Virus record (IMG/VR): IMGVR_UViG_2778261256_000009
Reading direction: 5' to 3' (one strand)
DNA: 12,617 nucleotides
From: a virus
Taxonomy: Duplodnaviria > Heunggongvirae > Uroviricota > Caudoviricetes
The first letter of the stretch is position 1, and each line of letters begins with the position of its first letter. A program made the translations under genes and the position numbers. This document shows, piece by piece, positions 1 through 12,617 of this stretch. The notes beneath the pieces were generated by a model. That model saw only the letters and a program-made list of their open reading frames with translations. It made no database searches and was not told the origin of the DNA.

Positions 1-38
1 CATTTGATCATATGACAAGATGTGTATCTACCTTAACT

Positions 39-62
39 TAATGATTTTGATAAAAATCATTA
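39..62. repeat. Perfect 10-bp inverted repeat TAATGATTTT-gata-AAAATCATTA, just left of where lambda ren-like homology begins
   Basis: Read directly from the sequence: arms at 39-48 and 53-62 are exact reverse complements with a 4-nt spacer. No T-run follows, so it is not an obvious intrinsic terminator. Could be an operator or protein-binding site, or a recombination junction. Confidence 0.35.
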
Positions 63-329
63 GGGGATTCATCAGCGCATAATAGCTTCTGTGCGCCGGA
101 CGTTGCCGCGCTAACAGGCGCAACAGTAACCAGCATAAATCAGGCCGCGGCTAAAATGGCACGGGCAGGTCTTCTGGTTATCGAAGGTAAGGTCTGGCGA
201 ACGGTGTATTACCGGTTTGCTACCAGGGAAGAACGGGAAGGAAAGATGAGCACGAACCTGATTTTTAAGGAGTGTCGCCAGAGTGCCGCGATGAAACGGG
301 TATTGGCGGTATATGGAGTTAAAAGATGA
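54..329 (+). pseudogene. ren: ren-like gene remnant (C-terminal ~90 codons of a lambda Ren homolog, 5' end replaced)
   Basis: The frame ending at TGA 327-329 translates to ...HNSFCAPDVAALTGATVTSINQAAAKMARAGLLVIEGKVWRTVYYRFATREEREGKMSTNLIFKECRQSAAMKRVLAVYGVKR, which matches lambda Ren as I recall it. In-frame stops lie at 39-53 and the first in-frame ATG is at 156, so the native N-terminus is missing. Confidence 0.55.
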
Positions 330-354
330 CCATCTACATTACTGAGCTAATAAC

Positions 355-386
355 AGGCCTGCTGGTAATCGCAGGCCTTTTTATTT
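355..386 (+). terminator. Rho-independent terminator (lambda tR2-like) between ren and ninB
   Basis: 8-bp GC-rich stem AGGCCTGC (355-362) / GCAGGCCT (371-378), 8-nt loop, then TTTTTATTT. Sits immediately upstream of the ninB RBS, as tR2 does in lambda. Confidence 0.7.
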
Positions 387-402
387 GGGGGAGAGGGAAG
401 TC

Positions 403-843
403 ATGAAAAAACTAACCTTTGAAATTCGATCTCCAGCACATCAGCAAAACGCTATTCACGCAGTACAGCAAATCCTTCCAGACCCAACCAAACCAATCGT
501 AGTAACCATTCAGGAACGCAACCGCAGCTTAGACCAAAACAGGAAGCTATGGGCCTGCTTAGGTGACGTCTCTCGTCAGGTTGAATGGCACGGTCGCTGG
601 CTGGATGCAGAAAGCTGGAAGTGTGTGTTTACCGCAGCATTAAAGCAGCAGGATGTTGTTCCTAACCTTGCCGGGAATGGCTTTGTGGTAATAGGCCAGT
701 CAACCAGCAGGATGCGTGTAGGCGAATTTGCGGAGCTATTAGAGCTTATACAGGCATTCGGTACAGAGCGTGGCGTTAAGTGGTCAGACGAAGCGAGACT
801 GGCTCTGGAGTGGAAAGCGAGATGGGGAGATCGGGCTGCATGA
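403..843 (+). CDS. ninB: NinB/Orf-family recombination protein
   Basis: Translation MKKLTFEIRSPAHQQNAIHAVQQILPDPTKPIVV... matches lambda NinB from memory. ATG at 403 follows GGGAGAGGGAAG RBS-like purines; the track ORF 385-843 has an upstream alternative start. Confidence 0.9.
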   Translation: MKKLTFEIRSPAHQQNAIHAVQQILPDPTKPIVVTIQERNRSLDQNRKLWACLGDVSRQVEWHGRWLDAESWKCVFTAALKQQDVVPNLAGNGFVVIGQSTSRMRVGEFAELLELIQAFGTERGVKWSDEARLALEWKARWGDRAA

Positions 844-1367
844 CTATCAAATCAAATACGCCAGCACACGACAAGGACTGCTGGCAAACGCCGCTTTGGC
901 TTTTTGATGCACTGGATATTGAGTTTGGATTCTGGCTGGATTCGGCAGCGAGCGACAAAAATGCTCTGTGTGCTCACTGGCTAACTGAGGCCGACGACGC
1001 GCTCAATTCTGAGTGGGTAAGCCACGGTGCAATCTGGAATAACCCACCGTACAGCAATATCAGGCCGTGGGTGGAAAAAGCTGCTGAGCAGTGCATACAA
1101 CAGCGACAGACGGTAGTTATGCTTGTGCCAGAGGATATGTCAGTCGGATGGTTCAGCAAGGCTCTGGAGAGTGTCGACGAAGTTCGCATTATCACTGATG
1201 GACGGATTAATTTTATCGAACCATCGACAGGGCTGGAGAAGAAGGGAAACAGCAAAGGCTCCATGCTGCTGATTTGGCGACCGTTCATCAGTCCTCGACG
1301 GATGTTTACTACCGTATCCAAAGCGGCATTGATGGCGATCGGGCAGGGCGTCAGGAGGGCGGCATGA
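840..1367 (+). CDS. Phage N6-adenine DNA methyltransferase (Dam-type, NPPY motif)
   Basis: Contains the WNNPPYS catalytic motif (motif IV of N6-adenine methyltransferases). ATG at 840 overlaps the ninB stop (ATGA coupling). Start could instead be 822 or GTG 780. Confidence 0.8.
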
Positions 1368-1540
1368 GGCGACAGCGACGAAGTTTCACCGACATCATCT
1401 GCGAAAACTGCAAATACCTTCCAACGAAACGCTCCAGAAATAAACGCAAGCCAATCCCAAAAGAATCTGACGTAAAAACCTTCAATTACACAGCTCACCT
1501 GTGGGATATCCGGTGGCTAAGATATCGTGCGAGGAAATGA
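1364..1540 (+). CDS. ninE: NinE protein
   Basis: [58 protein letters not shown] closely resembles lambda NinE (recalled). ATG at 1364 overlaps the methylase stop (ATGA). Confidence 0.85.
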
Positions 1541-1884
1541 CAATGGATTATTCACAGTTAAGTGATTTTGAAATTAACAGAATGGTAGGAGACATAATTT
1601 TTAAAGGCCTTTGGGCAAGTAAACCGGAAACATCAGGGAATAACACCAACAAATGGTATTACGGAAATGCTGATACAACTTTTGAGCCATTAAATCATTT
1701 GCCTGACTACTGCAATGATCCGAGCGCTTCATGGCCGATTATTGAGAAATACAGGATTTCTATCTTAGACCAGTTAACTGAATGGTGTGTGGATGCAAAA
1801 GGCGTAAGCCCAATATTTGATACCAGACCTCTCCGCGCCGCCATGATTGTCTTTCTCCTGATGCAGGAGGCCAATAATGCTTAG
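1537..1884 (+). CDS. Hypothetical nin-region protein (DUF2591/NinX-like)
   Basis: 115-codon ORF, translationally coupled on both sides: ATGA overlap with the ninE stop, and its end overlaps the next ATG at 1877. The family assignment is from memory of lambdoid nin regions and is tentative. Confidence 0.6.
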
Positions 1885-2071
1885 CCCATCTCAATCCCTT
1901 CAATACCTGAAAGGAAGCATAGAGCGGGCTTCAATGTGCACAGAGTGGATTCTATCTAGGTTTAGCGCATACAGAAGATTGCCGGTAAAGGGCATGCCAA
2001 GCAAGTCGATGCTGCATATGCAAAAGAATGCGCGCTGGAAGGTATGGCGAGAACACAGGTTATCTGGCTGA
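1877..2071 (+). CDS. NinF-like ORF, possibly chimeric or degenerate
   Basis: The N-terminus [10 protein letters not shown] is identical to lambda NinF as I recall it, but the rest diverges. A second frame is open for only 37 codons at 1981-2094 (TAG at 1978-1980; ...[23 protein letters not shown]) and ends in a GTGA overlap with the rusA start. This suggests a deletion or frameshift scar. Confidence 0.4.
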
Positions 2072-2090
2072 AAGAGGGGGTTATTAAGGC

Positions 2091-2453
2091 GTGAATACCT
2101 ACAGCATCACATTACCCTGGCCTCCGAGCAATAATCGCTATTACCGCCATAATCGCGGGCGCACGCACGTCAGCGCAGAGGGGCAGGCATACCGCGATAA
2201 CGTCGCCCGAATCATTAAAAACGCAATGCTGGATATCGGCCTGACTATGCCTGTGAAAATCCGCATTGAGTGCCACATGCCGGATCGCCGTCGCCGTGAC
2301 CTGGATAATCTGCAAAAAGCCGCTTTTGACGCACTCACTAAAGCAGGTTTCTGGCTGGATGATGCTCAGGTCGTTGATTACCGCGTTGTGAAGATGCCTG
2401 TTACCAAAGGTGGGAGGCTGGAACTGACCATCACCGAAATGGGGAATGAATGA
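2091..2453 (+). CDS. rusA: Holliday junction resolvase RusA (crossover junction endodeoxyribonuclease)
   Basis: [51 protein letters not shown]...[15 protein letters not shown] is near-identical to E. coli prophage RusA (recalled). GTG start at 2091. Confidence 0.9.
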
Positions 2454-2590
2454 TGTTTGAGTTTAATATGGCAGAACTTCTTCGCCACCGCTGGGGGCGT
2501 CTGCGCTTATATCGTTTCCCCGGTTCTGTTTTGACCGATTACCGAATACTGAAGAATTACGCCAAAACACTGACAGGAGCAGGAGTATGA
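2450..2590 (+). CDS. Small 46-codon ORF (YlcG-like) between rusA and Q
   Basis: ATGATG start overlaps the rusA stop; translation [46 protein letters not shown]. Below the ORF-track length cutoff. Position and size match the small ylcG gene of DLP12 (recalled), but the call is uncertain. Confidence 0.45.
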
Positions 2591-2675
2591 AGTCAGAGAT
2601 AACAATCAACTAATACTGTTTTGTTGATTTTTGCTTGTAATTGGCGTTCTGGTCTGAGTTTTGTGGAGTAAGTTG

Positions 2676-3053
2676 ATGCGTGATATTCAGATGGTTCTTG
2701 AGCGTTGGGGAGCGTGGGCGGCTAATAATCATGAAGATGTGACCTGGTCGTCCATTGCCGCCGGTTTTAAGGGATTAATTCCTTCAAAAGTAAAATCTCG
2801 CCCACAATGTTGTGACGATGACGCGATGATCATTTGCGGGTGCATGGCCCGTCTGAAAAAGAACAACAGCGATTTGCATGATTTATTGGTGGACTATTAT
2901 GTCGGCGGCATGACTTTTATGGCGCTTGCACGTAAGCATGGGCGATCTGATTGTTGGGTTGGCAGGATGCTTCAGAAAGCTGAGGGCGTAGTGGAGGGTA
3001 TGCTGATGGTGTTGGATCTCCGATTGGAGATGGATGCTGATTGTTCGAAATAA
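2676..3053 (+). CDS. Q: Late-gene antiterminator Q (QuuD/phage-82-type)
   Basis: [33 protein letters not shown]...[31 protein letters not shown] resembles E. coli prophage QuuD-type Q (recalled). ATG at 2676 follows GGAG; the track ORF starts at an upstream TTG (2661). Confidence 0.85.
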
Positions 3054-3065
3054 TTAAAGGAAAAG

Positions 3066-3094
3066 TTGCTGTCTGATTGTCATTAGTCTAACAT
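3066..3094 (+). promoter_or_regulatory. Candidate late promoter (PR'-like), which would also carry the qut site
   Basis: TTGCTG (3066-3071), a 17-nt spacer, then TAACAT (3089-3094), located just downstream of Q and about 60 nt upstream of a terminator. This is the lambdoid PR'-qut-tR' layout. Hexamers are weak matches to consensus; position-based inference. Confidence 0.25.
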
Positions 3095-3153
3095 TTTAAA
3101 TGTTGGAATCGCAACGTAGTTATTATCATATAACAGCTTGTTTCCTGATTTAG

Positions 3154-3180
3154 CCAGCCTCCCCAAAGGCTGGTCTTTTT
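3154..3180 (+). terminator. Rho-independent terminator (tR'-like, end of the short late leader transcript)
   Basis: Stem CCAGCC (3154-3159) / GGCTGG (3168-3173), loop TCCCCAAA, then TCTTTTT. It also lies 3' of the convergent blc-like gene, so it may work in both directions, weakly on the minus strand. Confidence 0.6.
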
Positions 3181-3208
3181 CTAATAAGTATTATTTCGGG
3201 TAGGGATT

Positions 3209-3733
3209 TTATTGTTTAACCCATAATAATTCATTGACATTGAATCCCAACTTTTGAGCGGTTCGCACATAGTCTGCTTTTACTTTATCTGGAATAGTTG
3301 GGGTCCTTGCCAGAATCCATAGGTATTCTCTGTTCGGACCACTGACAAGAGCATACTTATACTCATCATCCAGTTTGATTACATTATAGCCACCATAGAA
3401 GGGGCCAAAAAACGAAACCTTCAATGCTGCAGTTTTAGTATCTCCAGTAAAGTATGCTTTACCTTCGCTCTCGCTCCATTTATTTTTCGTTGGATCGTAT
3501 CCACGGTTAAGTACACGAATCCCTCCGTCGTTCCGTTTTCCATAAGTAGCGCTGACCTGTTCCAGACCACGTTCGAACCGGTTCTCGAGGCGAGCTATTT
3601 CATACCATTTTCCGAGGTAGCGGTTGGCGTCAAAATTTGTAATCGGCTGCACACCTTTAGGTGGTGTCGGGGCCTTACATGCTATAAGAGTGAAAGAGAG
3701 TGCAATGCCAGTCAACACAGGCCATAACTTCAT
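3209..3733 (-). CDS. blc: Outer-membrane lipocalin lipoprotein, Blc family
   Basis: MKLWPVLTGIALSFTLIAC has a signal peptide and LIAC lipobox. ...NFDANRYLGKWYEIARLENRFERGLE...KVSFFGPFYGGYNVI...YLWILARTP strongly resembles E. coli Blc (recalled). Confidence 0.9.
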   Translation of the reverse strand: MKLWPVLTGIALSFTLIACKAPTPPKGVQPITNFDANRYLGKWYEIARLENRFERGLEQVSATYGKRNDGGIRVLNRGYDPTKNKWSESEGKAYFTGDTKTAALKVSFFGPFYGGYNVIKLDDEYKYALVSGPNREYLWILARTPTIPDKVKADYVRTAQKLGFNVNELLWVKQ

Positions 3734-3925
3734 AATAAATCCTGTACTTTTGATAGTTGAGAGTAAGTATGAAAGATAGATGATTACGACCGATCACTTA
3801 AAGAACTTTCATACTATATTAGGAATAGTCCATAACAGAAAAATTGTCAGTGATGACGCCAGAAAGGCAATTTATTCCGTGCACTACACAGTTTATGTGT
3901 TAATGAATTAGTCAAGGGGGAGAAT

Positions 3926-4885
3926 ATGATAAAAAAACCTGTGATTGGAATCAGCGGTTGTTTGGCCGGTTCTGCTGTTCGTTTTGATGGTGGTCACAAA
4001 AGAGCTGACTTTTTAATGGACAAATTAGTGGAATGGGTAACATTCAGACCAGTATGTCCGGAAATGGCTATAGGGCTGCCAGTTCCGCGTCCTGCTCTAC
4101 GTCTTGTGCGCTCGATGCAAGGAAATATACGGATGTGTTTCAGCCACGACCAGAATGAGGATGTGACAGAGAGAATGACAGAGTTTAGTCGTTCTTATAT
4201 GGACAAATTAAAGGATGTATCGGGGTTTGTGGTTTGTGCTAAATCTCCCAGCTGTGGCATGGAGCGCGTGCGTGTCTATGATGAAAATGGTAATCGAGGT
4301 CGTAAAGATGGAGTGGGACTATTTACGAGCACTTTGATGGAAAAGTTTTCCTGGCTACCGGTTGAAGAGGATGGGCGATTACATGATCCAGTGCTTCGTG
4401 AGAATTTTGTTGAAAGAGTTTTTGCTTTGCATGAGCTCAATCACCTTTACAAGGAGAAATTATCAAGAAGAGAGTTATTAGCTTTTCATAGTCGTTATAA
4501 GCTTCAGTTGTTGGCGCATAGTCAGGCAGGCTATAAAGATATGGGACCATTTGTGGCTGCAATACACGAGTGGGCGGACCTTGAATCATACTTTGAGGTG
4601 TATCGTGATAAGCTGATGGCGATTCTCAGAAAACCTGCATCACGTAAAAATCACACGAATGTGTTGATGCATATACAGGGGTATTTTAGTAACTACTTAA
4701 GTACACGCCAGCGTAAAGAGTTGAGCGAGGTTATACTTAACTATCGTTCTGGCACATTACCTCTTCTTGCGCCGTTGACTCTGCTGAAGCATTATCTGGG
4801 TGAGTATCCTAATGATTACTTGCTTACACAGAATTACTTCGATCCCTATCCGGACGAACTGGCTCTAAGACTGACGGTAAATTAA
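3926..4885 (+). CDS. DUF523 (TudS-like) + DUF1722 fusion protein, YbgA/RudS-like putative [4Fe-4S] thiouracil/4-thiouridine desulfidase
   Basis: N-terminal MIKKPVIGISGCLAGSAVRFDGGHK..RPVCPEM..VVCAKSPSCGME has Cys at approximately residues 12, 44, 104 and 110, consistent with the Cys ligands of TudS-family desulfidases. The C-terminal half resembles DUF1722 (YbgA-like). RBS AAGGGGGAG precedes the ATG. Family assignment is from memory. Confidence 0.7.
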   Translation: MIKKPVIGISGCLAGSAVRFDGGHKRADFLMDKLVEWVTFRPVCPEMAIGLPVPRPALRLVRSMQGNIRMCFSHDQNEDVTERMTEFSRSYMDKLKDVSGFVVCAKSPSCGMERVRVYDENGNRGRKDGVGLFTSTLMEKFSWLPVEEDGRLHDPVLRENFVERVFALHELNHLYKEKLSRRELLAFHSRYKLQLLAHSQAGYKDMGPFVAAIHEWADLESYFEVYRDKLMAILRKPASRKNHTNVLMHIQGYFSNYLSTRQRKELSEVILNYRSGTLPLLAPLTLLKHYLGEYPNDYLLTQNYFDPYPDELALRLTVN

Positions 4886-5227
4886 TTGTATGCGATATCA
4901 TCCAAAAGGATGAGTTCCTGCATGCAGGATATTTACAATCGTAAAAACTACACTATGATACCCAGAGTGTCAGTTTGTATAAAAACTCTGTTTACGCTGA
5001 AGAAACAATTGAGATGCAACTTAAAGTTGGTAAACATGCCAGTCAAAATATATAATATTATGATTCCACGCAGCTATATATAATATAACAGATTGGTTTA
5101 ATAATTTGTCTTTGTGAGTTAAATACATAATTTTATACTTGTGATGCAATGAAATTTTCCTTATTGTTGAACTGGCGAATATTGATTTTCCACCTATACT
5201 TACCTGGTGTAACCCCAATGATATCAG

Positions 5228-5968
5228 GTGGATAATATGCCATACATATGTTCTATCATTTTGGTGTTGAACTCGTTTGATGTCCGAATTGGTAAAGAAG
5301 ATATTTTGTTTAAAAAAGGAAGTGCTGTTCTCATTGATTACAATTTAAAAGATTTTTTTTCATCAAATATAGATCATGTAATGATCGTAGATGTTGAAGA
5401 GAAAACAGTTAATGATTTCTTTAAAAGCAACACACTCTCACCTTTTTCTGTAAGAAGGTTTTATCCGGCATACTTGATGGTGGAATGTGAAGATTTTTCA
5501 TTGTTAAAGAACTTGATTGCATGCTTGAATTGTGATGGCAGAACTGTGGATTTTGTTAGAAATCAAATATCACTTGCATGTCTTGCTATCTTATCTTCAG
5601 AGAAAATAGTGCAAAGTTTTTTATTTGGATGTCTTAATAGTTTAGGAAGTAAAGTTAAGGCTATTATTCACACGGATATATCTGCAGCATGGAGACTTTG
5701 TGATATATCTTCAAGACTGTATCTGAGTGAAAGTCTGTTAAAAAGAAAATTAAAGCACGAAGGCTTATCATTTAGTAAGTTAATTCTTGAAGAGCGAATG
5801 GTGATGGCGGAAAGGTTATTAAGCTACAATTTATATTCTGTTGGAAAAGTTGCTGAGATATGCGGTTATGAAAACACGTCATATTTTGTAAGTGTTTTCA
5901 GAAGGTATTTTGGTGTTCCTCCCCATCAATATTCATCAAGATTTTTTTTAGAAAAAGACATGATGTAA
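5228..5968 (+). CDS. AraC/XylS-family transcriptional regulator (C-terminal HTH), AT-rich
   Basis: The C-terminal region ...LYLSESLLKRKLKHEGLSFSKLILEERMVMAERLLSYNLYSVGKVAEICGYENTSYFVSVFRRYFGVPPHQY is a typical AraC-type double HTH. The gene and its 340-bp upstream region are markedly AT-rich. Start may be ATG 5228 or ATG 5237, which follows AGGTGG. Confidence 0.8.
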   Translation: MDNMPYICSIILVLNSFDVRIGKEDILFKKGSAVLIDYNLKDFFSSNIDHVMIVDVEEKTVNDFFKSNTLSPFSVRRFYPAYLMVECEDFSLLKNLIACLNCDGRTVDFVRNQISLACLAILSSEKIVQSFLFGCLNSLGSKVKAIIHTDISAAWRLCDISSRLYLSESLLKRKLKHEGLSFSKLILEERMVMAERLLSYNLYSVGKVAEICGYENTSYFVSVFRRYFGVPPHQYSSRFFLEKDMM

Positions 5969-6029
5969 CGTGATGCGTTTTAATGATTTTGTAATTTTCG
6001 TATTTGATAATTGTATGATGCTTTCAGCT

Positions 6030-6060
6030 ACGCCAGAATAATCGCGGCGTTTTTCTTTTT
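6030..6060 (+). terminator. Candidate intrinsic terminator downstream of the AraC-family gene
   Basis: Short stem ACGCC (6030-6034) / GGCGT (6046-6050) followed by TTTTTCTTTTT (6051-6060). The stem is weak, so confidence is modest. Confidence 0.35.
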
Positions 6061-6155
6061 GAATAGATGTTCAAGCCTTACGCTAATGTAACTTCTATAC
6101 CTTTCCTCTTCGTTCCGAACCGTGTACACCATCCGTTATTTGCGGAGGTGAGGCT

Positions 6156-6371
6156 ATGAAATCCATGGATAAGTTAACAACGGGTGTCGCCTATGGCACC
6201 TCAGCAGGTAGTGCCGGTTACTGGTTTTTACAGCTGCTCGATAAAGTCACGCCCTCACAGTGGGCAGCAATAGGTGTGCTGGGTAGCCTGGTATTTGGCC
6301 TGCTGACGTACCTGACAAACCTTTATTTCAAGATTAAAGAAGATAAGCGCAAGGCTGCGAGAGGTGAATAA
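6156..6371 (+). CDS. S: Class II holin / pinholin (phage 21 S-like), with dual-start motif
   Basis: 71 aa, [71 protein letters not shown]. Two Met codons (M1 and M4) fit the antiholin/holin dual start. Two hydrophobic segments; resembles S21/EssD (recalled). RBS GGAGGTGAGG. Confidence 0.9.
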
Positions 6372-6868
6372 TGCCTCCATCATTACGAAAAGCCGTTGCT
6401 GCTGCTATTGGTGGCGGAGCAATTGCTATAGCATCAGTGTTAATCACTGGCCCAAGTGGTAACGATGGTCTGGAAGGTGTCAGCTACATACCATACAAAG
6501 ATATCGTTGGCGTATGGACTGTATGTCACGGGCATACAGGAAAAGACATCATTCCCGGTAAAACGTATACCGAAGCAGAATGCAAAGCCCTCCTGAATAA
6601 AGACCTTGCCACGGTAGCCAGACAAATTAACCCGTACATCAAAGTCGATATACCGGAAACAACGCGCGGCGCTCTTTACTCGTTCGTCTATAACGTGGGC
6701 GCAGGCAATTTCAGAACATCTACTCTTCTTCGCAAAATAAACCAGGGCGATATCAAGGGCGCATGTGACCAGCTACGTCGCTGGGCATACGCTGGCGGTA
6801 AGCAATGGAAAGGCCTGATGACTCGTCGTGAGATTGAGCGTGAGGTCTGTTTGTGGGGGCAACAATGA
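6371..6868 (+). CDS. R: SAR endolysin (T4-lysozyme-like muramidase, R21-type)
   Basis: N-terminal Gly/Ala-rich weakly hydrophobic segment [20 protein letters not shown] (signal-anchor-release domain), then [25 protein letters not shown] carrying the E-x8-D-x5-T catalytic triad. Start overlaps the holin stop. Confidence 0.9.
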
Positions 6869-7329
6869 GCAGGGTAACCGCGATTATCTCCGCTCTGGTT
6901 ATCTGCATCGTCGTCTGCCTGTCATGGGGTGTTAATCATTACCGTGATAACGCCATCGCCTACAAAGAACAGCGCGACAAAAATGCCAGAGAACTGAAGC
7001 TGGCGAACGCGGCAATTACTGACATGCAGATGCGTCAGCGTGATGTTGCTGCGCTCGATGCAAAATACACGAAGGAGTTAGCTGATGCGAAAGCTGAAAA
7101 TGATGTTCTGCGTGATGATGTTGCCGCTGGTCGTCGTCGGTTGCACATCAAAGCAGTCTGTCAGTCAGTGCGTGAAGCCACCACCGCCTCCGGCGTGGAT
7201 AATGCAGCCTCCCCCCGACTGGCAGACACCGCTGAACGGGATTATTTCACCCTCCGGGAACGACTGGTAATGATGCAGGCCCAACTTGAAGGTGCTCAGC
7301 AATACATAACCGAGCAGTGTTTAAAGTAA
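6865..7329 (+). CDS. Rz: Rz i-spanin
   Basis: ATG at 6865 overlaps the endolysin stop (ATGA). N-terminal TM segment [21 protein letters not shown] followed by a charged, coiled-coil-like periplasmic domain. Resembles lambda Rz. Confidence 0.85.
7085..7270 (+). CDS. Rz1: Rz1 o-spanin lipoprotein, embedded in the +1 frame of Rz
   Basis: [53 protein letters not shown] has a lipobox (VVGC) and a proline-rich mature region. Lies wholly inside Rz in another frame, the classic spanin arrangement. Confidence 0.8.
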
Positions 7330-7466
7330 AATCTTAACTACAATATGATTCATTTTGATGATTGTTTCATAAGGAACAGTGAAGTAAGATCTAAGAGGAG
7401 TTAAATTTTATACAGTATAATCATAATATTGCAGCAAGGTGGTTATAATTGAAAGAATATTTAGAT

Positions 7467-8924
7467 ATGAATACATCTCATGTAAGAGTTGTTACTCATA
7501 TGTGTGGGTTCCTGGTTTGGCTCTATAGTCTTTCAATGTTGCCACCAATGGTTGTAGCATTGTTTTATAAAGAAAAAAGCCTGTTCGTTTTCTTTATAAC
7601 TTTCGTTATATTTTTTTGCATTGGTGGCGGAGCGTGGTATACAACTAAGAAATCTGGCATTCAATTACGTACCCGTGATGGGTTTATTATAATTGTAATG
7701 TTTTGGATTTTGTTTTCTGTTATTAGTGCATTCCCTTTATGGATTGACTCAGAACTTAATTTAACGTTCATTGATGCTCTGTTTGAAGGGGTTTCTGGAA
7801 TAACAACAACAGGAGCAACTGTAATTGATGATGTTAGTTCATTACCTCGGGCATATTTGTACTATCGGTCACAGTTAAATTTTATAGGTGGTTTAGGAGT
7901 TATTGTTCTGGCGGTTGCTGTATTGCCATTATTGGGTATTGGTGGTGCAAAGCTTTATCAGTCAGAAATGCCGGGGCCATTTAAGGATGACAAACTCACT
8001 CCCCGCCTGGCCGATACGTCACGGACACTGTGGATAACTTATTCTTTATTAGGTATTGCTTGTATTGTCTGTTATAGACTTGCAGGAATGCCTTTGTTTG
8101 ATGCTATTTGTCACGGGATTTCCACAGTTTCGCTTGGTGGTTTCTCAACTCATAGCGAGAGTATCGGATATTTTAATAACTATTTGGTTGAGCTGGTGGC
8201 TGGTTCTTTTTCCCTGCTATCGGCTTTCAACTTCACTCTTTGGTATATTGTTATTAGCAGGAAAACGATAAAACCTTTAATCAGAGATATTGAACTTCGT
8301 TTCTTTCTGTTAATAGCCTTAGGGGTGATCATTGTTACCTCTTTCCAGGTCTGGCATATAGGTATGTATGACTTGCATGGAAGTTTTATTCATTCGTTTT
8401 TTCTTGCCAGCTCCATGCTCACTGATAATGGTTTAGCTACGCAGGATTATGCAAGTTGGCCCACGCACACGATAGTGTTTTTGCTGTTGTCAAGTTTCTT
8501 TGGGGGATGTATAGGTTCAACTTGTGGTGGAATTAAGTCACTTCGATTTCTTATACTTTTCAAACAAAGCAAACACGAGATAAATCAGCTTTCTCATCCC
8601 AGAGCGTTGTTGAGTGTAAATGTAGGAGGGAAGATAGTTACAGATCGTGTAATGAGGTCTGTATGGAGTTTCTTTTTTCTTTATACTCTCTTCACGGTGT
8701 TTTTTATACTGGTGTTAAATGGTATGGGATATGATTTTCTTACATCATTTGCAACAGTGGCTGCATGTATTAATAATATGGGATTAGGTTTTGGGGCTAC
8801 TGCATCGTCATTCGGAGTGCTTAATGACATTGCAAAATGTTTAATGTGCATAGCTATGATTCTTGGTCGCCTTGAAATTTATCCTGTTATTATATTGTTT
8901 TCAGGTTTTTTTTGGCGCTCCTAA
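7467..8924 (+). CDS. trkG: TrkH/TrkG-family potassium uptake transporter (Rac-prophage TrkG-like)
   Basis: 485-aa polytopic membrane protein from ATG 7467, MNTSHVRVVTHMCGFLVWLYSL..., with several glycine-containing selectivity-filter-like P-loops (e.g. GVSGITTTGATV, GISTVSLGGFS, ACINNMGLGFG). AT-rich. Matches E. coli K-12 TrkG as recalled. The track ORF starts at an upstream TTG (7449). Confidence 0.9.
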   Translation: MNTSHVRVVTHMCGFLVWLYSLSMLPPMVVALFYKEKSLFVFFITFVIFFCIGGGAWYTTKKSGIQLRTRDGFIIIVMFWILFSVISAFPLWIDSELNLTFIDALFEGVSGITTTGATVIDDVSSLPRAYLYYRSQLNFIGGLGVIVLAVAVLPLLGIGGAKLYQSEMPGPFKDDKLTPRLADTSRTLWITYSLLGIACIVCYRLAGMPLFDAICHGISTVSLGGFSTHSESIGYFNNYLVELVAGSFSLLSAFNFTLWYIVISRKTIKPLIRDIELRFFLLIALGVIIVTSFQVWHIGMYDLHGSFIHSFFLASSMLTDNGLATQDYASWPTHTIVFLLLSSFFGGCIGSTCGGIKSLRFLILFKQSKHEINQLSHPRALLSVNVGGKIVTDRVMRSVWSFFFLYTLFTVFFILVLNGMGYDFLTSFATVAACINNMGLGFGATASSFGVLNDIAKCLMCIAMILGRLEIYPVIILFSGFFWRS

Positions 8925-9061
8925 TATATGGCTGATTTATAATTGTGAGTTTAATATTATGTTGACTCACTCATTGATCCAATACCTAACTTTACCAGCA
9001 ACCCCTCCGTCCCCAGTAGCACTGGCTGCTGGGGTGCGTTTTATTCATAAAGCAAGGCTGT

Positions 9062-9853
9062 ATGAGCGAGAAATTAAAGATAGTCTATCGCCCATTACAA
9101 GAATTGTCACCGTATGCGCACAACGCCAGGACGCACAGCCCTGAGCAGGTGGCACAACTGGTAGAAAGTATTAAGCAATTCGGCTGGACTAATCCGGTGC
9201 TGATTGACGAAAAGGGCGAAATTATTGCGGGTCACGGTCGTGTTATGGCGGCTGAAATGCTCAAAATGGATTCTGTTCCGGTCATTGTTCTGTCTGGCCT
9301 GACGGATGAGCAGAAAAAGGCGTACCGCCTGGCAGATAATCGCCTGCCGATGAATGCTGGCTGGGATGAAGATCTGTTGCGGATGGAGCTGTCGGACCTA
9401 ATCAATGCTGATTTTGATGTCTCCCTGACAGGCTTCATCCCGACAGAAATTGATGAACTGTTGACGGATGTTTTGCCCGGTACAGGAAATGAGGAGGAGC
9501 CGTATACGACGAAAATTGATACGCCTGTTTATGAGCCGTCGGGCGGTAAACCGGATATCAGTGAACTGTACGACGATACGAAAACTCAGGAGCTGATCAG
9601 CCGGATACGTTCGGCGTCCCTTGAGCCTGATATTGAGAAATTCCTCCTGTGTGCGGCAGAACGTCACACGGTGTTTAATTTCAGCAGAATTGCGGACTAT
9701 TACGCTCACGCCCCCTCTGAAATTCAGTGTTTTTTCGAGGAGTCGGCGCTGGTGATCATTGATTATCAGCAGGCTATTGAAAATGGATTTGTCCGGATGA
9801 CGCAGCGCATGGTGGAGATCATGCATGGTGGTGAGGAGGAGGAATATGCGTGA
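9062..9853 (+). CDS. ParB N-terminal-domain (ParB/Srx-like nuclease domain) protein, YnaK-like
   Basis: The N-terminus LKIVYRPLQELSPYAHNARTHSPEQVAQLVESIKQFGWTNPVLIDEKGEIIAGHGRVMAAEML shows the ParB-N fold signature, including a GxxR box. C-terminus is acidic. Occupies the position after trkG that ynaK holds in Rac (recalled). Confidence 0.75.
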   Translation: MSEKLKIVYRPLQELSPYAHNARTHSPEQVAQLVESIKQFGWTNPVLIDEKGEIIAGHGRVMAAEMLKMDSVPVIVLSGLTDEQKKAYRLADNRLPMNAGWDEDLLRMELSDLINADFDVSLTGFIPTEIDELLTDVLPGTGNEEEPYTTKIDTPVYEPSGGKPDISELYDDTKTQELISRIRSASLEPDIEKFLLCAAERHTVFNFSRIADYYAHAPSEIQCFFEESALVIIDYQQAIENGFVRMTQRMVEIMHGGEEEEYA

Positions 9854-10778
9854 TGATTTTTGCGCCTTTATTCTGACTCACGGGCGACCGGACAAAGTTC
9901 TGACTTACCGGACGTTGCGTCGTGCTGGCTATACCGGGAAAATTTTTATCGTTGTTGATGATGAAGATAAGACACGGAATCAGTACATGGCTGAATTTGG
10001 TGAACAGGTGCTGGTGTTTTCCAAAGCCGATATCGCCAGTCGTTTTGACGAAGCCGATAATTTCTGTGACCGCCGCTCAATTTTTTACGCCCGTAATGCC
10101 TGTTTCGACCTGGCAAAACTGGTCGGGTGTAAATACTTCATTCAGCTCGATGATGATTATCACGAGTTCCAGTTTCGGGTGGATCGCAACTATGACCAGG
10201 CCTATTTTCCGATAAGGAAACTGGATGCGATCCTTTCTGAAATGCTGGCGTACTACGAATCAATACCTGCTCTTTCCATCGCTATGTCGCAGGGCGGGGA
10301 TTTTCTTGGTGACAATGGCGGCCATGCTTCGTGGGTGAAACGCAAGGCAATGAACAGCTTTATCTGTTCGGTTGATCGACCGTTCTCATTCATGGGGCGC
10401 ATTAACGAGGATGTGAATACGTACACGAATCTCGGTCGCTGTGGTGAATTGTTTATGACGATCGGTGCTGTCCAGTTAGGGCAGAAACAGACGCAGAAAA
10501 ACAGCGGCGGAATGACCGAGCTGTATCTGGATTCCGGAACCTACGTTAAAAGTTTTTACTCCGTCATGTATGCGCCGTCGTGCGTAAAAATCTCACTGAT
10601 GGGTGCCAGCCATAAACGCATTCACCATCAGGTCACCTGGAACAACGCTGCAGTAAAAATCCTTCACGAAAAATACAGGAAGAAGACACCCTGCATATCA
10701 ATGGGGGTGACAAATGATTCCGTATTCGAAAGTCGAGTCTCTGGCAGCGTGCCGGATGACTGCACAACAAATCGCTGA
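9846..10778 (+). CDS. Uncharacterised protein with a GT-A-fold-like motif pattern (possible nucleotide-sugar transferase); function unknown
   Basis: ATG at 9846 follows a strong GAGGAGGAGG RBS and overlaps the ParB-like stop by 8 nt. The pattern FILTHGRPDKV .. IFIVVDDEDK .. YFIQLDDDYH resembles the beta1 / DD / DxD layout of GT-A glycosyltransferases. This is a motif-level inference only. Confidence 0.55.
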   Translation: MRDDFCAFILTHGRPDKVLTYRTLRRAGYTGKIFIVVDDEDKTRNQYMAEFGEQVLVFSKADIASRFDEADNFCDRRSIFYARNACFDLAKLVGCKYFIQLDDDYHEFQFRVDRNYDQAYFPIRKLDAILSEMLAYYESIPALSIAMSQGGDFLGDNGGHASWVKRKAMNSFICSVDRPFSFMGRINEDVNTYTNLGRCGELFMTIGAVQLGQKQTQKNSGGMTELYLDSGTYVKSFYSVMYAPSCVKISLMGASHKRIHHQVTWNNAAVKILHEKYRKKTPCISMGVTNDSVFESRVSGSVPDDCTTNR

Positions 10779-10965
10779 CGTTCTGGATGTTGATCTGAAC
10801 CGACTGAAAGAAAATCGGGAAGCAATGACAGATTTTTATGCGGCCATCCGTAAGGGCAGAGCGAAAGGTGAAGCCGAGTTACGAGCGGCATTGTTTAAGC
10901 TTGCCAGAAAAGGGGATGCCTTTGCTCTGCGCGAACTACTCAGGGTGGATAAAAATCAGGACTAA
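10756..10965 (+). CDS. Small putative HTH protein immediately upstream of, and in frame with, the terminase small subunit
   Basis: MTAQQIADVLDVDLNRLKENREAMTDFYAAIRKGRAKGEAELRAALFKLARKGDAFALRELL is HTH-like. A single TAA (10963-10965) separates it from the ATG at 10969 in the same frame. Start is ambiguous (10714 or 10756) and overlaps the upstream gene. Confidence 0.4.
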   Translation: MTAQQIADVLDVDLNRLKENREAMTDFYAAIRKGRAKGEAELRAALFKLARKGDAFALRELLRVDKNQD

Positions 10966-10968
10966 CTG

Positions 10969-12063
10969 ATGAGCAGACCGGACTGGGGGGCGTTGCAGCA
11001 GGAGTATATTGCTGAATACACCCGCTCCGGTATATCTCCGGTGGCATGGTGTGAAGCAAGGGGACTGAATTACGCAACAGCCCGTCGTTACATCAAAAAA
11101 ACTCCGAAAAATGCGCAGACAGAAATGTGCAAAACTGCGCAAAAAAGTGCGCAGAAAAAATCTGCGCAGACTGCACAAAAGCGGAACGAAAAATCTCAGG
11201 AAAAAAAGCCAGTATTCGATGCGGGCCTGAATGAGGGCGACGCGGAGGAATTTTCGTTCTGTCCCGATGAATTCGGCATTTCTGACCAGCAGGCTAAGTT
11301 TGCGATGCTTGTTGCTCAGGGTAAAAAGCCGACAGAGGCGTACCGACTAGCCGGTTATGAGGGGCAAGGTGCGACAGCTAACAGCAACGCCAGTCGTATG
11401 CTTAGAAATGCCAGGGTTTTTCGCGCTATCAGCTACTTCCGCAATCAGTACCAGAAACGCTATACCGCAGACCTGGATTTACTAGTGAGTCAGTTGATGG
11501 CTATTGCCCTGGCCGACCCCAATCAGCTTGCACAATTTCGCCGTGTTAACTGCCGTTATTGCTGGGGCGAGAATCATCTCTACCAGTGGCGCGATATAGC
11601 AGAATTCGACAAGGCAGCGGCGCAGGCTTCCAGAGATGGCAAACCCGAACCGGAATATGGAGGCCTCGGCTTTGTTGATAACGCCATACCCAATCCGGAC
11701 TGCCCGAAGTGCTGCGGTGAGGGAACGGGACAGCTTTATATGGCTGATACCACTCTGCTTGATGGGGATGCGCGGCAATTATATGCAGGGGCAAAATTCG
11801 GAAAATTCGGCGTTGAGATCCTGCTGGAGGATAAGGCTGCCGCCCGGCGTGAATTGTTGCGTTTGTTTTCTGCTGGCGGGGCTTTATGTGCAGATAAACG
11901 GCTACAGGAACTGGAAATTGAACGGCGCAGAATGGAAAACCAGAAGCTGCGCAAAGAGATCGAAACGGTGGAAGATAATGAACATCCCCAGCCTGTGGCG
12001 ATCAATATTAATGTGGTTGATGCCAGAGTAAGGAGTGATGAAGATGATCTCTCCGACGCTTAA
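10969..12063 (+). CDS. Terminase small subunit (Terminase_2-like domain) with a low-complexity AQK-rich linker
   Basis: The segment QQAKFAMLVAQGKKPTEAYRLAGYEGQGATANSNASRMLRNARVFRAISYF matches the conserved core of phage terminase small subunits as I know it. Lies immediately upstream of, and overlapping, a Walker-A-containing terminase large subunit. Confidence 0.7.
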   Translation: MSRPDWGALQQEYIAEYTRSGISPVAWCEARGLNYATARRYIKKTPKNAQTEMCKTAQKSAQKKSAQTAQKRNEKSQEKKPVFDAGLNEGDAEEFSFCPDEFGISDQQAKFAMLVAQGKKPTEAYRLAGYEGQGATANSNASRMLRNARVFRAISYFRNQYQKRYTADLDLLVSQLMAIALADPNQLAQFRRVNCRYCWGENHLYQWRDIAEFDKAAAQASRDGKPEPEYGGLGFVDNAIPNPDCPKCCGEGTGQLYMADTTLLDGDARQLYAGAKFGKFGVEILLEDKAAARRELLRLFSAGGALCADKRLQELEIERRRMENQKLRKEIETVEDNEHPQPVAININVVDARVRSDEDDLSDA

Positions 12064-12547
12064 TGTGCCTCAGGCGCGATTTCTTTCAATGCCCCATAAA
12101 TTTAAAGCCTATATTGCTGGTTTTGGCTCGGGCAAAACATGGGTTGGGTGTGGCGGCATATGCAAGGGGATTTGGGAGCATCCAGGTATAAATCAGGGAT
12201 ATTTTGCGCCAACGTATCCCCAAATTCGCGATATTTTTTACCCTACAGTGGAAGAAGTTGCTGCTGACTGGGGATTGAACGTAAAAATTAATGAGGGAAA
12301 TAAAGAGGTTCACTTTTATTACGGACGCCAGTATCGGGGAACCACTATCTGCAGATCGATGGAGAAGCCACAAACGATCGTCGGTTTCAAAATTGGTAAT
12401 GCGTTGGTGGATGAACTGGACATTTTGCCGAAGGAAAAAGCCAGAACGGCGTGGCGCAAGATAATTGCACGTATGCGTTATAAGATTGATGGACTTCGCA
12501 ACGGTATTGACGTTACAACCACGCCGGAAGGATTCAAATTTGGGTGA
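12044..12547 (+). pseudogene. Terminase large subunit, N-terminal ATPase fragment truncated by an IS1 insertion
   Basis: Walker A motif AGFGSGKTW near the N-terminus. The ORF ends at a TGA (12545-12547) supplied by the first bases of the IS1 terminal repeat, so only about 167-170 codons remain; a full TerL would be about 450-600 aa. Start is 12035, 12038 or 12044; 12044 has the best RBS spacing (AGGAG at 12031-12035). Confidence 0.8.
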
Positions 12548-12617
12548 TGCTGCCAACTTACTGATTTAGTGTATGATGGTGTTTTTGAGGTGCTCCAGTG
12601 GCTTCTGTTTCTATCAG
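12543..12617 (+). mobile_element. insA: IS1 left end (terminal inverted repeat plus start of insA), continuing beyond the window
   Basis: GGTGATGCTGCCAACTTACTGATTTAGTGTATGATGGTGTTTTTGAGGTGCTCCAGTGGCTTCTGTTTCTATCAG matches the IS1 end and insA start (GTG at 12598, VASVSI...) as I recall it. Only 75 bp are in the window. Confidence 0.85.

Follow-up and report, generated by a model that had tools for sequence, protein, structure and literature searches.

Members of the IS1 family of insertion sequences, which are 768 bp long and encode the InsA/InsAB′ transposase, prefer AT-rich targets, and the adjacent deletions that they generate start exactly at the end of the element, without a target duplication. 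The cryptic prophages Rac, DLP12 and Qin of Escherichia coli K-12 keep early, lysis and moron genes and have lost most of their morphogenesis genes. Prophages with an IS-disrupted terminase can still excise and can even be packaged by the terminase of another prophage, as illustrated by Sp4 of E. coli O157 Sakai: its nu1 is disrupted by an IS, yet it is packaged, and the Sp14 terminase is most likely responsible (Asadulghani et al., 2009, PMC2669165).

The DNA examined here is a stretch of 12,617 nucleotides (IMG/VR record IMGVR_UViG_2778261256_000009, hereafter the window) that corresponds to the entire short-read contig NNVY01000081.1 of the draft assembly GCA_002485945.1. It ends within an IS1 element, the left inverted repeat and first 75 bp of which are identical to IS1. 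The prophage type to which it belongs resembles the K-12 cryptic prophages in keeping early, lysis and moron genes. With Rac it shares the placement of trkG and of a ParB-like gene of the ynaK type after the lysis cassette, and its lysis genes are of the essD/rrrD/rzpD type (PGAP names), for which DLP12 is the namesake. Unlike Rac, this prophage type occupies attB-lambda (ybhC/ybhB-bioA), and it differs from the K-12 cryptic prophages in retaining the terminase small subunit (TerS) together with a stub of the large subunit (TerL) and in that its decay is recent and lineage-specific, being seen in one of 5,426 closed genomes. In Sp4 it is the small subunit gene that is disrupted and most structural genes are kept, whereas the window has a disrupted large subunit and its closest genome is devoid of the whole head and tail region, so that supplying terminase in trans would be insufficient. 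Compared with large subunits of the Terminase_6N/6C class (T4/P22-type, headful), the window fragment shares the 6N domain with its Walker A and B motifs but comprises 166 of 433 residues and has no nuclease domain. We consider it likely that the IS1 in the window is the edge of an IS1-bounded deletion of approximately 21 kb and that the element is a cryptic prophage remnant.

The truncated terminase gene and its junction with IS1

The window is bounded by IS10 on the left and IS1 on the right, and each end consists of exactly 75 nt of the repeat. Contig ends that carry a repeat piece of fixed size are typical assembly-graph breakpoints of short-read assemblies. The features at the two ends are as follows.

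1–75, minus strand: end of IS10/ISVsa5 (IS4 family), 75 bp, with 100% identity to the IS10 end of the R100 plasmid's Tn10
10969–12063, plus strand: terminase small subunit (TerS), intact, 364 aa; Pfam Terminase_2 (1.2e-08), PHROG 51 (6.5e-76)
12044–12547, plus strand: truncated terminase large subunit (TerL′), 166 phage residues, one junction-encoded Gly and TGA; Terminase_6N match
12119–12139, plus strand: Walker A, GFGSGKT, aa 26–32, kept (sequence reading)
12401–12415, plus strand: Walker B, ALVDE, aa 120–124, kept (sequence reading)
12515–12523, plus strand: TTT, putative ATPase coupling (C) motif, aa 158–160, kept (sequence reading; tentative assignment)
12543–12617, plus strand: IS1 left end (75 of 768 bp), matching the IS1 at L001 20644–21411 (NZ_AP023286.1) in 75/75 positions
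12545–12547, plus strand: TerL′ stop codon TGA, IS1 bases 3–5

The terL′ frame, which begins within the last 20 nt of the TerS gene, matches Pfam Terminase_6N (PF03237; 5.1e-19, profile positions 3–139 of 215). Counted from the ATG at 12044, the start chosen by both PGAP and Prodigal, it has 167 codons, and from the alternative GTG start at 12035 it has 170. The phage-derived part corresponds to residues 1–166 of the 433-aa TerL and is identical to that of ON032529.1, with three substitutions relative to 81EVA. Uninterrupted TerL homologues match the window only up to base 12542, after which they run on as …TTTGTCTACGAGCAG, and IS1 occupies the window from 12543. The junction, read directly from the window and present also in the closed genome described below, consists of …GGATTCAAATTTG on the phage side and GGTGATGCTGCCAACTTACTGATTTAGTG… on the IS1 side; codon 167 (GGG) straddles the border and is followed by the TGA that IS1 provides. 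The initial annotation, which had IS1 truncating TerL 167–170 codons into the gene at a TGA formed by the terminal repeat, was thus correct on both counts and in its coordinates, and its exact 75-bp match is upheld by the identity of all 75 bases to the 768-bp IS1 of NZ_AP023286.1. The 23-bp left inverted repeat (IRL) GGTGATGCTGCCAACTTACTGAT lies at 12543–12565 and the GTG start of insA at 12598, with IS1 in the orientation of the phage late operon. The full element in the closed relative is 768 bp long and encodes InsA (PF03811/PF12759) and InsB (PF03400), for which PGAP notes a 'programmed frameshift'.

The break had been placed shortly after the Walker A motif. It lies further downstream: Walker A, Walker B (both assigned by the established motifs of the TerL ATPase) and TTT are all kept, and the phage sequence breaks off six residues past TTT. 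In the intact 433-aa TerL, Terminase_6N spans aa 24–238 and Terminase_6C aa 255–417; the truncation leaves the ATPase domain without its distal third and eliminates the C-terminal RNase H-like nuclease domain (Terminase_6C) completely from the 167-aa product. Because both the distal ATPase part and the nuclease domain are lost, TerL′ cannot serve as a working packaging motor. A phmmer search of PDB sequences with the intact 433-aa TerL gave no match at E≤0.01. The exact 167-aa product, which is listed in 27 blocks, was read on 24 contigs of NCBI, ENA and Logan origin, including the closed genome, where PGAP labels the same frame 'incomplete; missing C-terminus' beside the IS1 transposase. A minus-strand frame of 156 aa (12086–12556) overlaps TerL′ and was treated as spurious.

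The closest closed genome and the sequence beyond IS1

Among the 5,426 complete E. coli genomes, the left junction between TerL and IS1 is present in exactly one, NZ_AP023286.1, the closed hybrid (Illumina and Nanopore) genome of strain 2018-18.25PC, an ST10 pig isolate from Vietnam (PMC7937380). Apart from the Tn6330 insertion described below, over window positions 76–12617 this genome differs from the window by a single SNP in approximately 12.5 kb, at position 3920 (G versus A), which falls in the ribosome-binding region of a ybgA-like gene. Its prophage lies at attB-lambda, where intact int and xis adjoin ybhC and the right end adjoins ybhB/bioA, and the gene order in the window and in the closed relative (L001 and L027) is of the lambda type: ren, nin region, Q, lysis, packaging. 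We infer that the window's own genome carries its prophage at the same site, between ybhC and ybhB/bioA. The expectation of an IS-rich E. coli background was borne out, as the relative has at least 35 matches to IS1 ends, but the suggested Shigella affinity was not, since the background is that of a commensal or livestock E. coli and the closest strain is livestock ST10 (PMC7937380).

In the closed genome the nine bases that border the IS1 (L001 20644–21411) are TCAAATTTG at its left end and GCCGAATCA at its right end, with no target-site duplication. It is followed by a 5′-truncated stf, tfa, a diguanylate cyclase gene, ybhB, bioA and the chromosome. The initial annotation had anticipated a target duplication and the rest of the terminase downstream; the closest closed genome has neither, its IS1 being joined directly to truncated stf. 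In ON032529.1, the late region is complete and runs from TerS and TerL through portal, minor head, scaffold, capsid, head–tail, tube and tape measure genes to a tail tip of the M/L/K/I/J type, lom, stf and tfa. Relative to this region, the left break falls at 5415 and similarity resumes within stf near 26495, a gap of approximately 21.1 kb and roughly 20 genes. All virion genes from TerL to stf, portal through J included, are absent from the closed relative.

Three simple IS1 insertions in this prophage family provide a control, and each has a duplication of 8–9 bp.

ECSC054: IS1 at TerL codon 217, 9-bp duplication AGCTGATTA
TB354: IS1 at TerL codon 96, 9-bp duplication GGACGCCAG
2018-18.25PC: IS1 in sieB, 8-bp duplication GATTCTCT

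No duplication is present at four IS1 copies that precede unrelated sequence, in 2018-18.25PC, PSJ-14, GF66.2 and PigCaeca_1. The absence of a duplication at the TerL IS1, when the controls have one, argues against a simple insertion and not against the identity of the element as IS1. As in classic IS1 adjacent deletions, the deletion in the closest genome begins at the IS end.

The right-hand (IS1–stf) junction occurs among complete genomes in NZ_AP023286.1 alone. On the strength of a 251-aa stf remnant found on one contig, we had considered the deletion to be private to the closed genome, other calls of this remnant in drafts differing by a SNP or being cut at contig ends. This view was overturned by drafts located through the exact tfa allele, which is carried by 11 contigs, of which 10 were viewed. 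The right inverted repeat (IRR) of IS1 followed by GCCGAATCAGG, which constitutes the junction, is directly observed in four of these drafts (L029, L030, L031 and L036), and three further contigs (L032–L034) start 2–5 nt past it; across approximately 4.5 kb, all seven match the closed genome with an identity of 99.97% or more. Recurrence of the right junction in drafts indicates that the deletion is lineage-wide. The window's assembly, GCA_002485945.1, was not among the 10 of 11 contigs viewed.

On the reading that we favour, the window would be the right-hand part of a lambda-like prophage at attB-lambda in an IS1-rich, ST10-type E. coli, and we infer that its own genome shares the right-hand junction, such that the IRR (…AAGTTGGAGTCATTACC) would lead into GCCGAATCAGGCGCT (′stf). 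The deletion would have been produced either by intramolecular transposition of IS1 (adjacent deletion) or by recombination of one IS1 copy with another, and would have removed TerL codons 167–433, the portal, head, head–tail, tail tube, tape measure and tail tip (J) genes, lom and two thirds of stf from its 5′ end. The AT-richness of the left target, TCAAATTTG, would fit an original insertion at TerL with a later rightward deletion. A second IS1, in sieB of the same prophage (L027 2358–3125, NZ_AP023286.1), is identical to the TerL copy at 768 of 768 positions and is flanked by the 8-bp duplication listed above, which suggests a recent local hop or a partner for IS1–IS1 recombination.

The remnant would keep int/xis, recombination, immunity and replication genes, Q, the lysis genes, TerS and cargo (trkG and others), and would make no capsids, tails or packaging motor. 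Given that the closed relative has intact int, xis, O, P, Q and lysis genes, it may still excise, replicate and lyse its host. For its transfer, a helper phage would have to contribute all virion functions and a compatible terminase. The proposal that TerL alone would have to be supplied in trans does not hold for the relative, in which all morphogenesis genes are gone, so that every virion protein would be needed. The broader description of the element as a packaging-defective, domesticated prophage survives in part: TerL is no working motor, but the element is more likely to be a remnant without virion genes than a prophage defective in TerL only.

The principal alternative is a simple insertion of IS1 into TerL, in which the IRR would be followed by TCAAATTTG (or CAAATTTG) and then by TCTACGAGCAGTTT, where TerL would resume at codon 167 ahead of the portal and capsid genes. 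An IRR running into TCAAATTTGTCTACGAGCAG would represent such an insertion with a 9-bp duplication; the other 267 TerL codons and an intact morphogenesis region would follow, and rescue by TerL in trans would be possible. The window itself is compatible with this structure since it stops inside IS1. Simple insertions with 9-bp duplications do occur elsewhere in the same TerL (ECSC054 and TB354), the AT-rich left target suits a primary insertion site, the window's assembly was unseen among the viewed contigs with the deletion junction, and a sublineage that predates the deletion and carries a simple insertion is conceivable. However, the sole closed genome with the left junction, one SNP away, has the deletion, and the deletion junction is explicit in the four drafts and closely approached by the three contigs that begin 2–5 nt beyond it. 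We also simulated the products expected beside a simple insertion and looked them up. The C-terminal TerL product of 259 aa, starting at the GTG of codon 175, was listed in 28 blocks, with 24 contigs read; all 10 of the 10 places inspected proved to be other lesions, and IS1 in this orientation at this TerL site was found on none of the inspected contigs with the 259-aa product. Taken with the duplication evidence, this makes a simple insertion unlikely. A contig that ends inside an IS cannot separate an insertion from the edge of a deletion, and 'TerL-only' defects deduced from draft contigs need checking against closed relatives.

Recurrent lesions in TerL

A further reading is that loss of virion production and packaging, with TerS, TerL′, lysis and cargo genes kept, was favoured by selection; in its favour, at least 10 independent lesions of this TerL were found across E. 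coli and Shigella, the packaging module being carried by roughly 770 complete genomes. IS1 accounts for six sites: codon 167, the junction codon of the window, and codons 96, 150, 152, 217 and 254 in TerL homologues of loci L005–L008 and L017–L026. The other lesions in these loci are an insertion of an IS3-family element at 151/152, one of a further IS at 157, the nonsense mutation Q170* (CAG>TAG) and a 4-bp deletion at codon 169. The genes upstream of TerL′ remain open. A possible benefit is dominant-negative interference by TerS and TerL′ against superinfecting relatives; alternatively, trkG and other morons might be kept while virion production is disabled. One cluster contains 493 N-terminal fragment sequences, but many of its members are contig-edge partials, and the list of lesions is biased in having been found by searching for truncated products. 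Moreover, the lesions are explained equally well if a widespread prophage decays neutrally in hosts rich in IS elements, and a PADLOC scan matched no defence model to TerL′. We therefore regard selected domestication as very improbable. An assembly artefact, in which a chimeric contig end joined TerL to an IS1 read, might be prompted by the exactly 75 nt of repeat at both contig ends, but has a negligible likelihood given that the closed hybrid genome and the 24 contigs with the exact 167-aa product, from three sources, have the identical junction.

The GF66.2 prophage, in which an IS1-bounded deletion starts just after the TerL gene, carries a full-length TerL (L006 3145–4446) that is annotated as intact. 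It has a D123N substitution that changes ALVDE to ALVNE, and because this substitution hits Walker B, the protein is probably inactive, judging from the motif.

The IS10 end, lysis genes and cargo

At the left end of the window, IS10 interrupts a lambda-type ren gene after its first 37 nt; phage sequence continues from ren nt 38 (by comparison with L001 3390–3680), and the remainder of the interrupted gene occupies 76–329. NZ_AP023286.1 has no IS10 in ren, and the IS10–ren junction was found in none of the complete E. coli genomes. The initial annotation had described the replication side as looking intact, but the replication genes O and P lie outside the window, which starts at the IS10 within ren. 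The IS10 falls within the pR transcription unit, ahead of the nin region and Q, so it could exert polarity on the late genes and could lower transcription of Q and the lysis genes in the window's strain. A tRNA scan of the window found none.

The genes for the Q antiterminator, holin, lysozyme, spanin, TrkG, the ParB-like protein, a TAGT-type glycosyltransferase and TerS are all open frames, in agreement with the initial annotation, which had described the lysis and cargo genes as looking intact. The lysis cassette and the principal cargo gene are located as follows.

6156–7329, plus strand: lysis cassette, holin EssD, lysozyme RrrD and spanin RzpD; Pfam Phage_holin_2_1, Phage_lysozyme and Phage_lysis (matches made on L010, which is window 2044–12617); PGAP names
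7467–8924, plus strand: trkG potassium-transporter cargo gene; Pfam TrkH (5.2e-145); PGAP trkG

The position of trkG, with the spanin gene on one side and the packaging genes on the other, is that seen in the K-12 Rac prophage. Its presence in an attB-lambda prophage as well as in Rac indicates that the trkG/ynaK module moves between lambdoid phages whose integration sites differ. Between trkG and TerS are two overlapping genes, encoding a ParB_N-domain protein (9062–9853) and a TAGT/GREB1-like glycosyltransferase (9846–10778). The first is called a ynaK pseudogene by PGAP, yet its frame of 263 aa is open; its ParB_N part is similar to the N-terminal regions of DNA methyltransferases from phages (phrog_498; PADLOC MTase_II, 2e-38), and this methyltransferase-like match at the N-terminus was the only one that PADLOC returned for the cargo genes. 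The glycosyltransferase matches Pfam PF20691 (8e-35) and PHROG 842 ('beta-glucosyl-HMC-alpha-glucosyltransferase', 1e-103). From these similarities the pair may form a DNA-modification module; no TET/JBP-type oxygenase was seen within the window.

A further cargo block, at 3209–5968 between Q and holin, which is the position at which Stx phages carry stx, encodes a lipocalin (minus strand), a YbgA-type DUF523/DUF1722 protein and an AraC-type regulator. In NZ_AP023286.1 a complete copy of Tn6330 (ISApl1–mcr-1–pap2–ISApl1; L001 8660–13409) is inserted at the site equivalent to window 5308/5309, within the AraC-type HTH gene (5237–5968) and hence inside the cryptic prophage. The word 'prophage' has no occurrence in the published account of this strain (PMC7937380). 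What the locus illustrates is textbook IS-driven prophage decay, which is known biology at a site already annotated in RefSeq, and its import beyond annotation is small. In the sister strain it is in this cryptic prophage that the mcr-1 transposon landed on the chromosome, and a remnant that makes no particles would offer mcr-1 a stable, non-transducing home.
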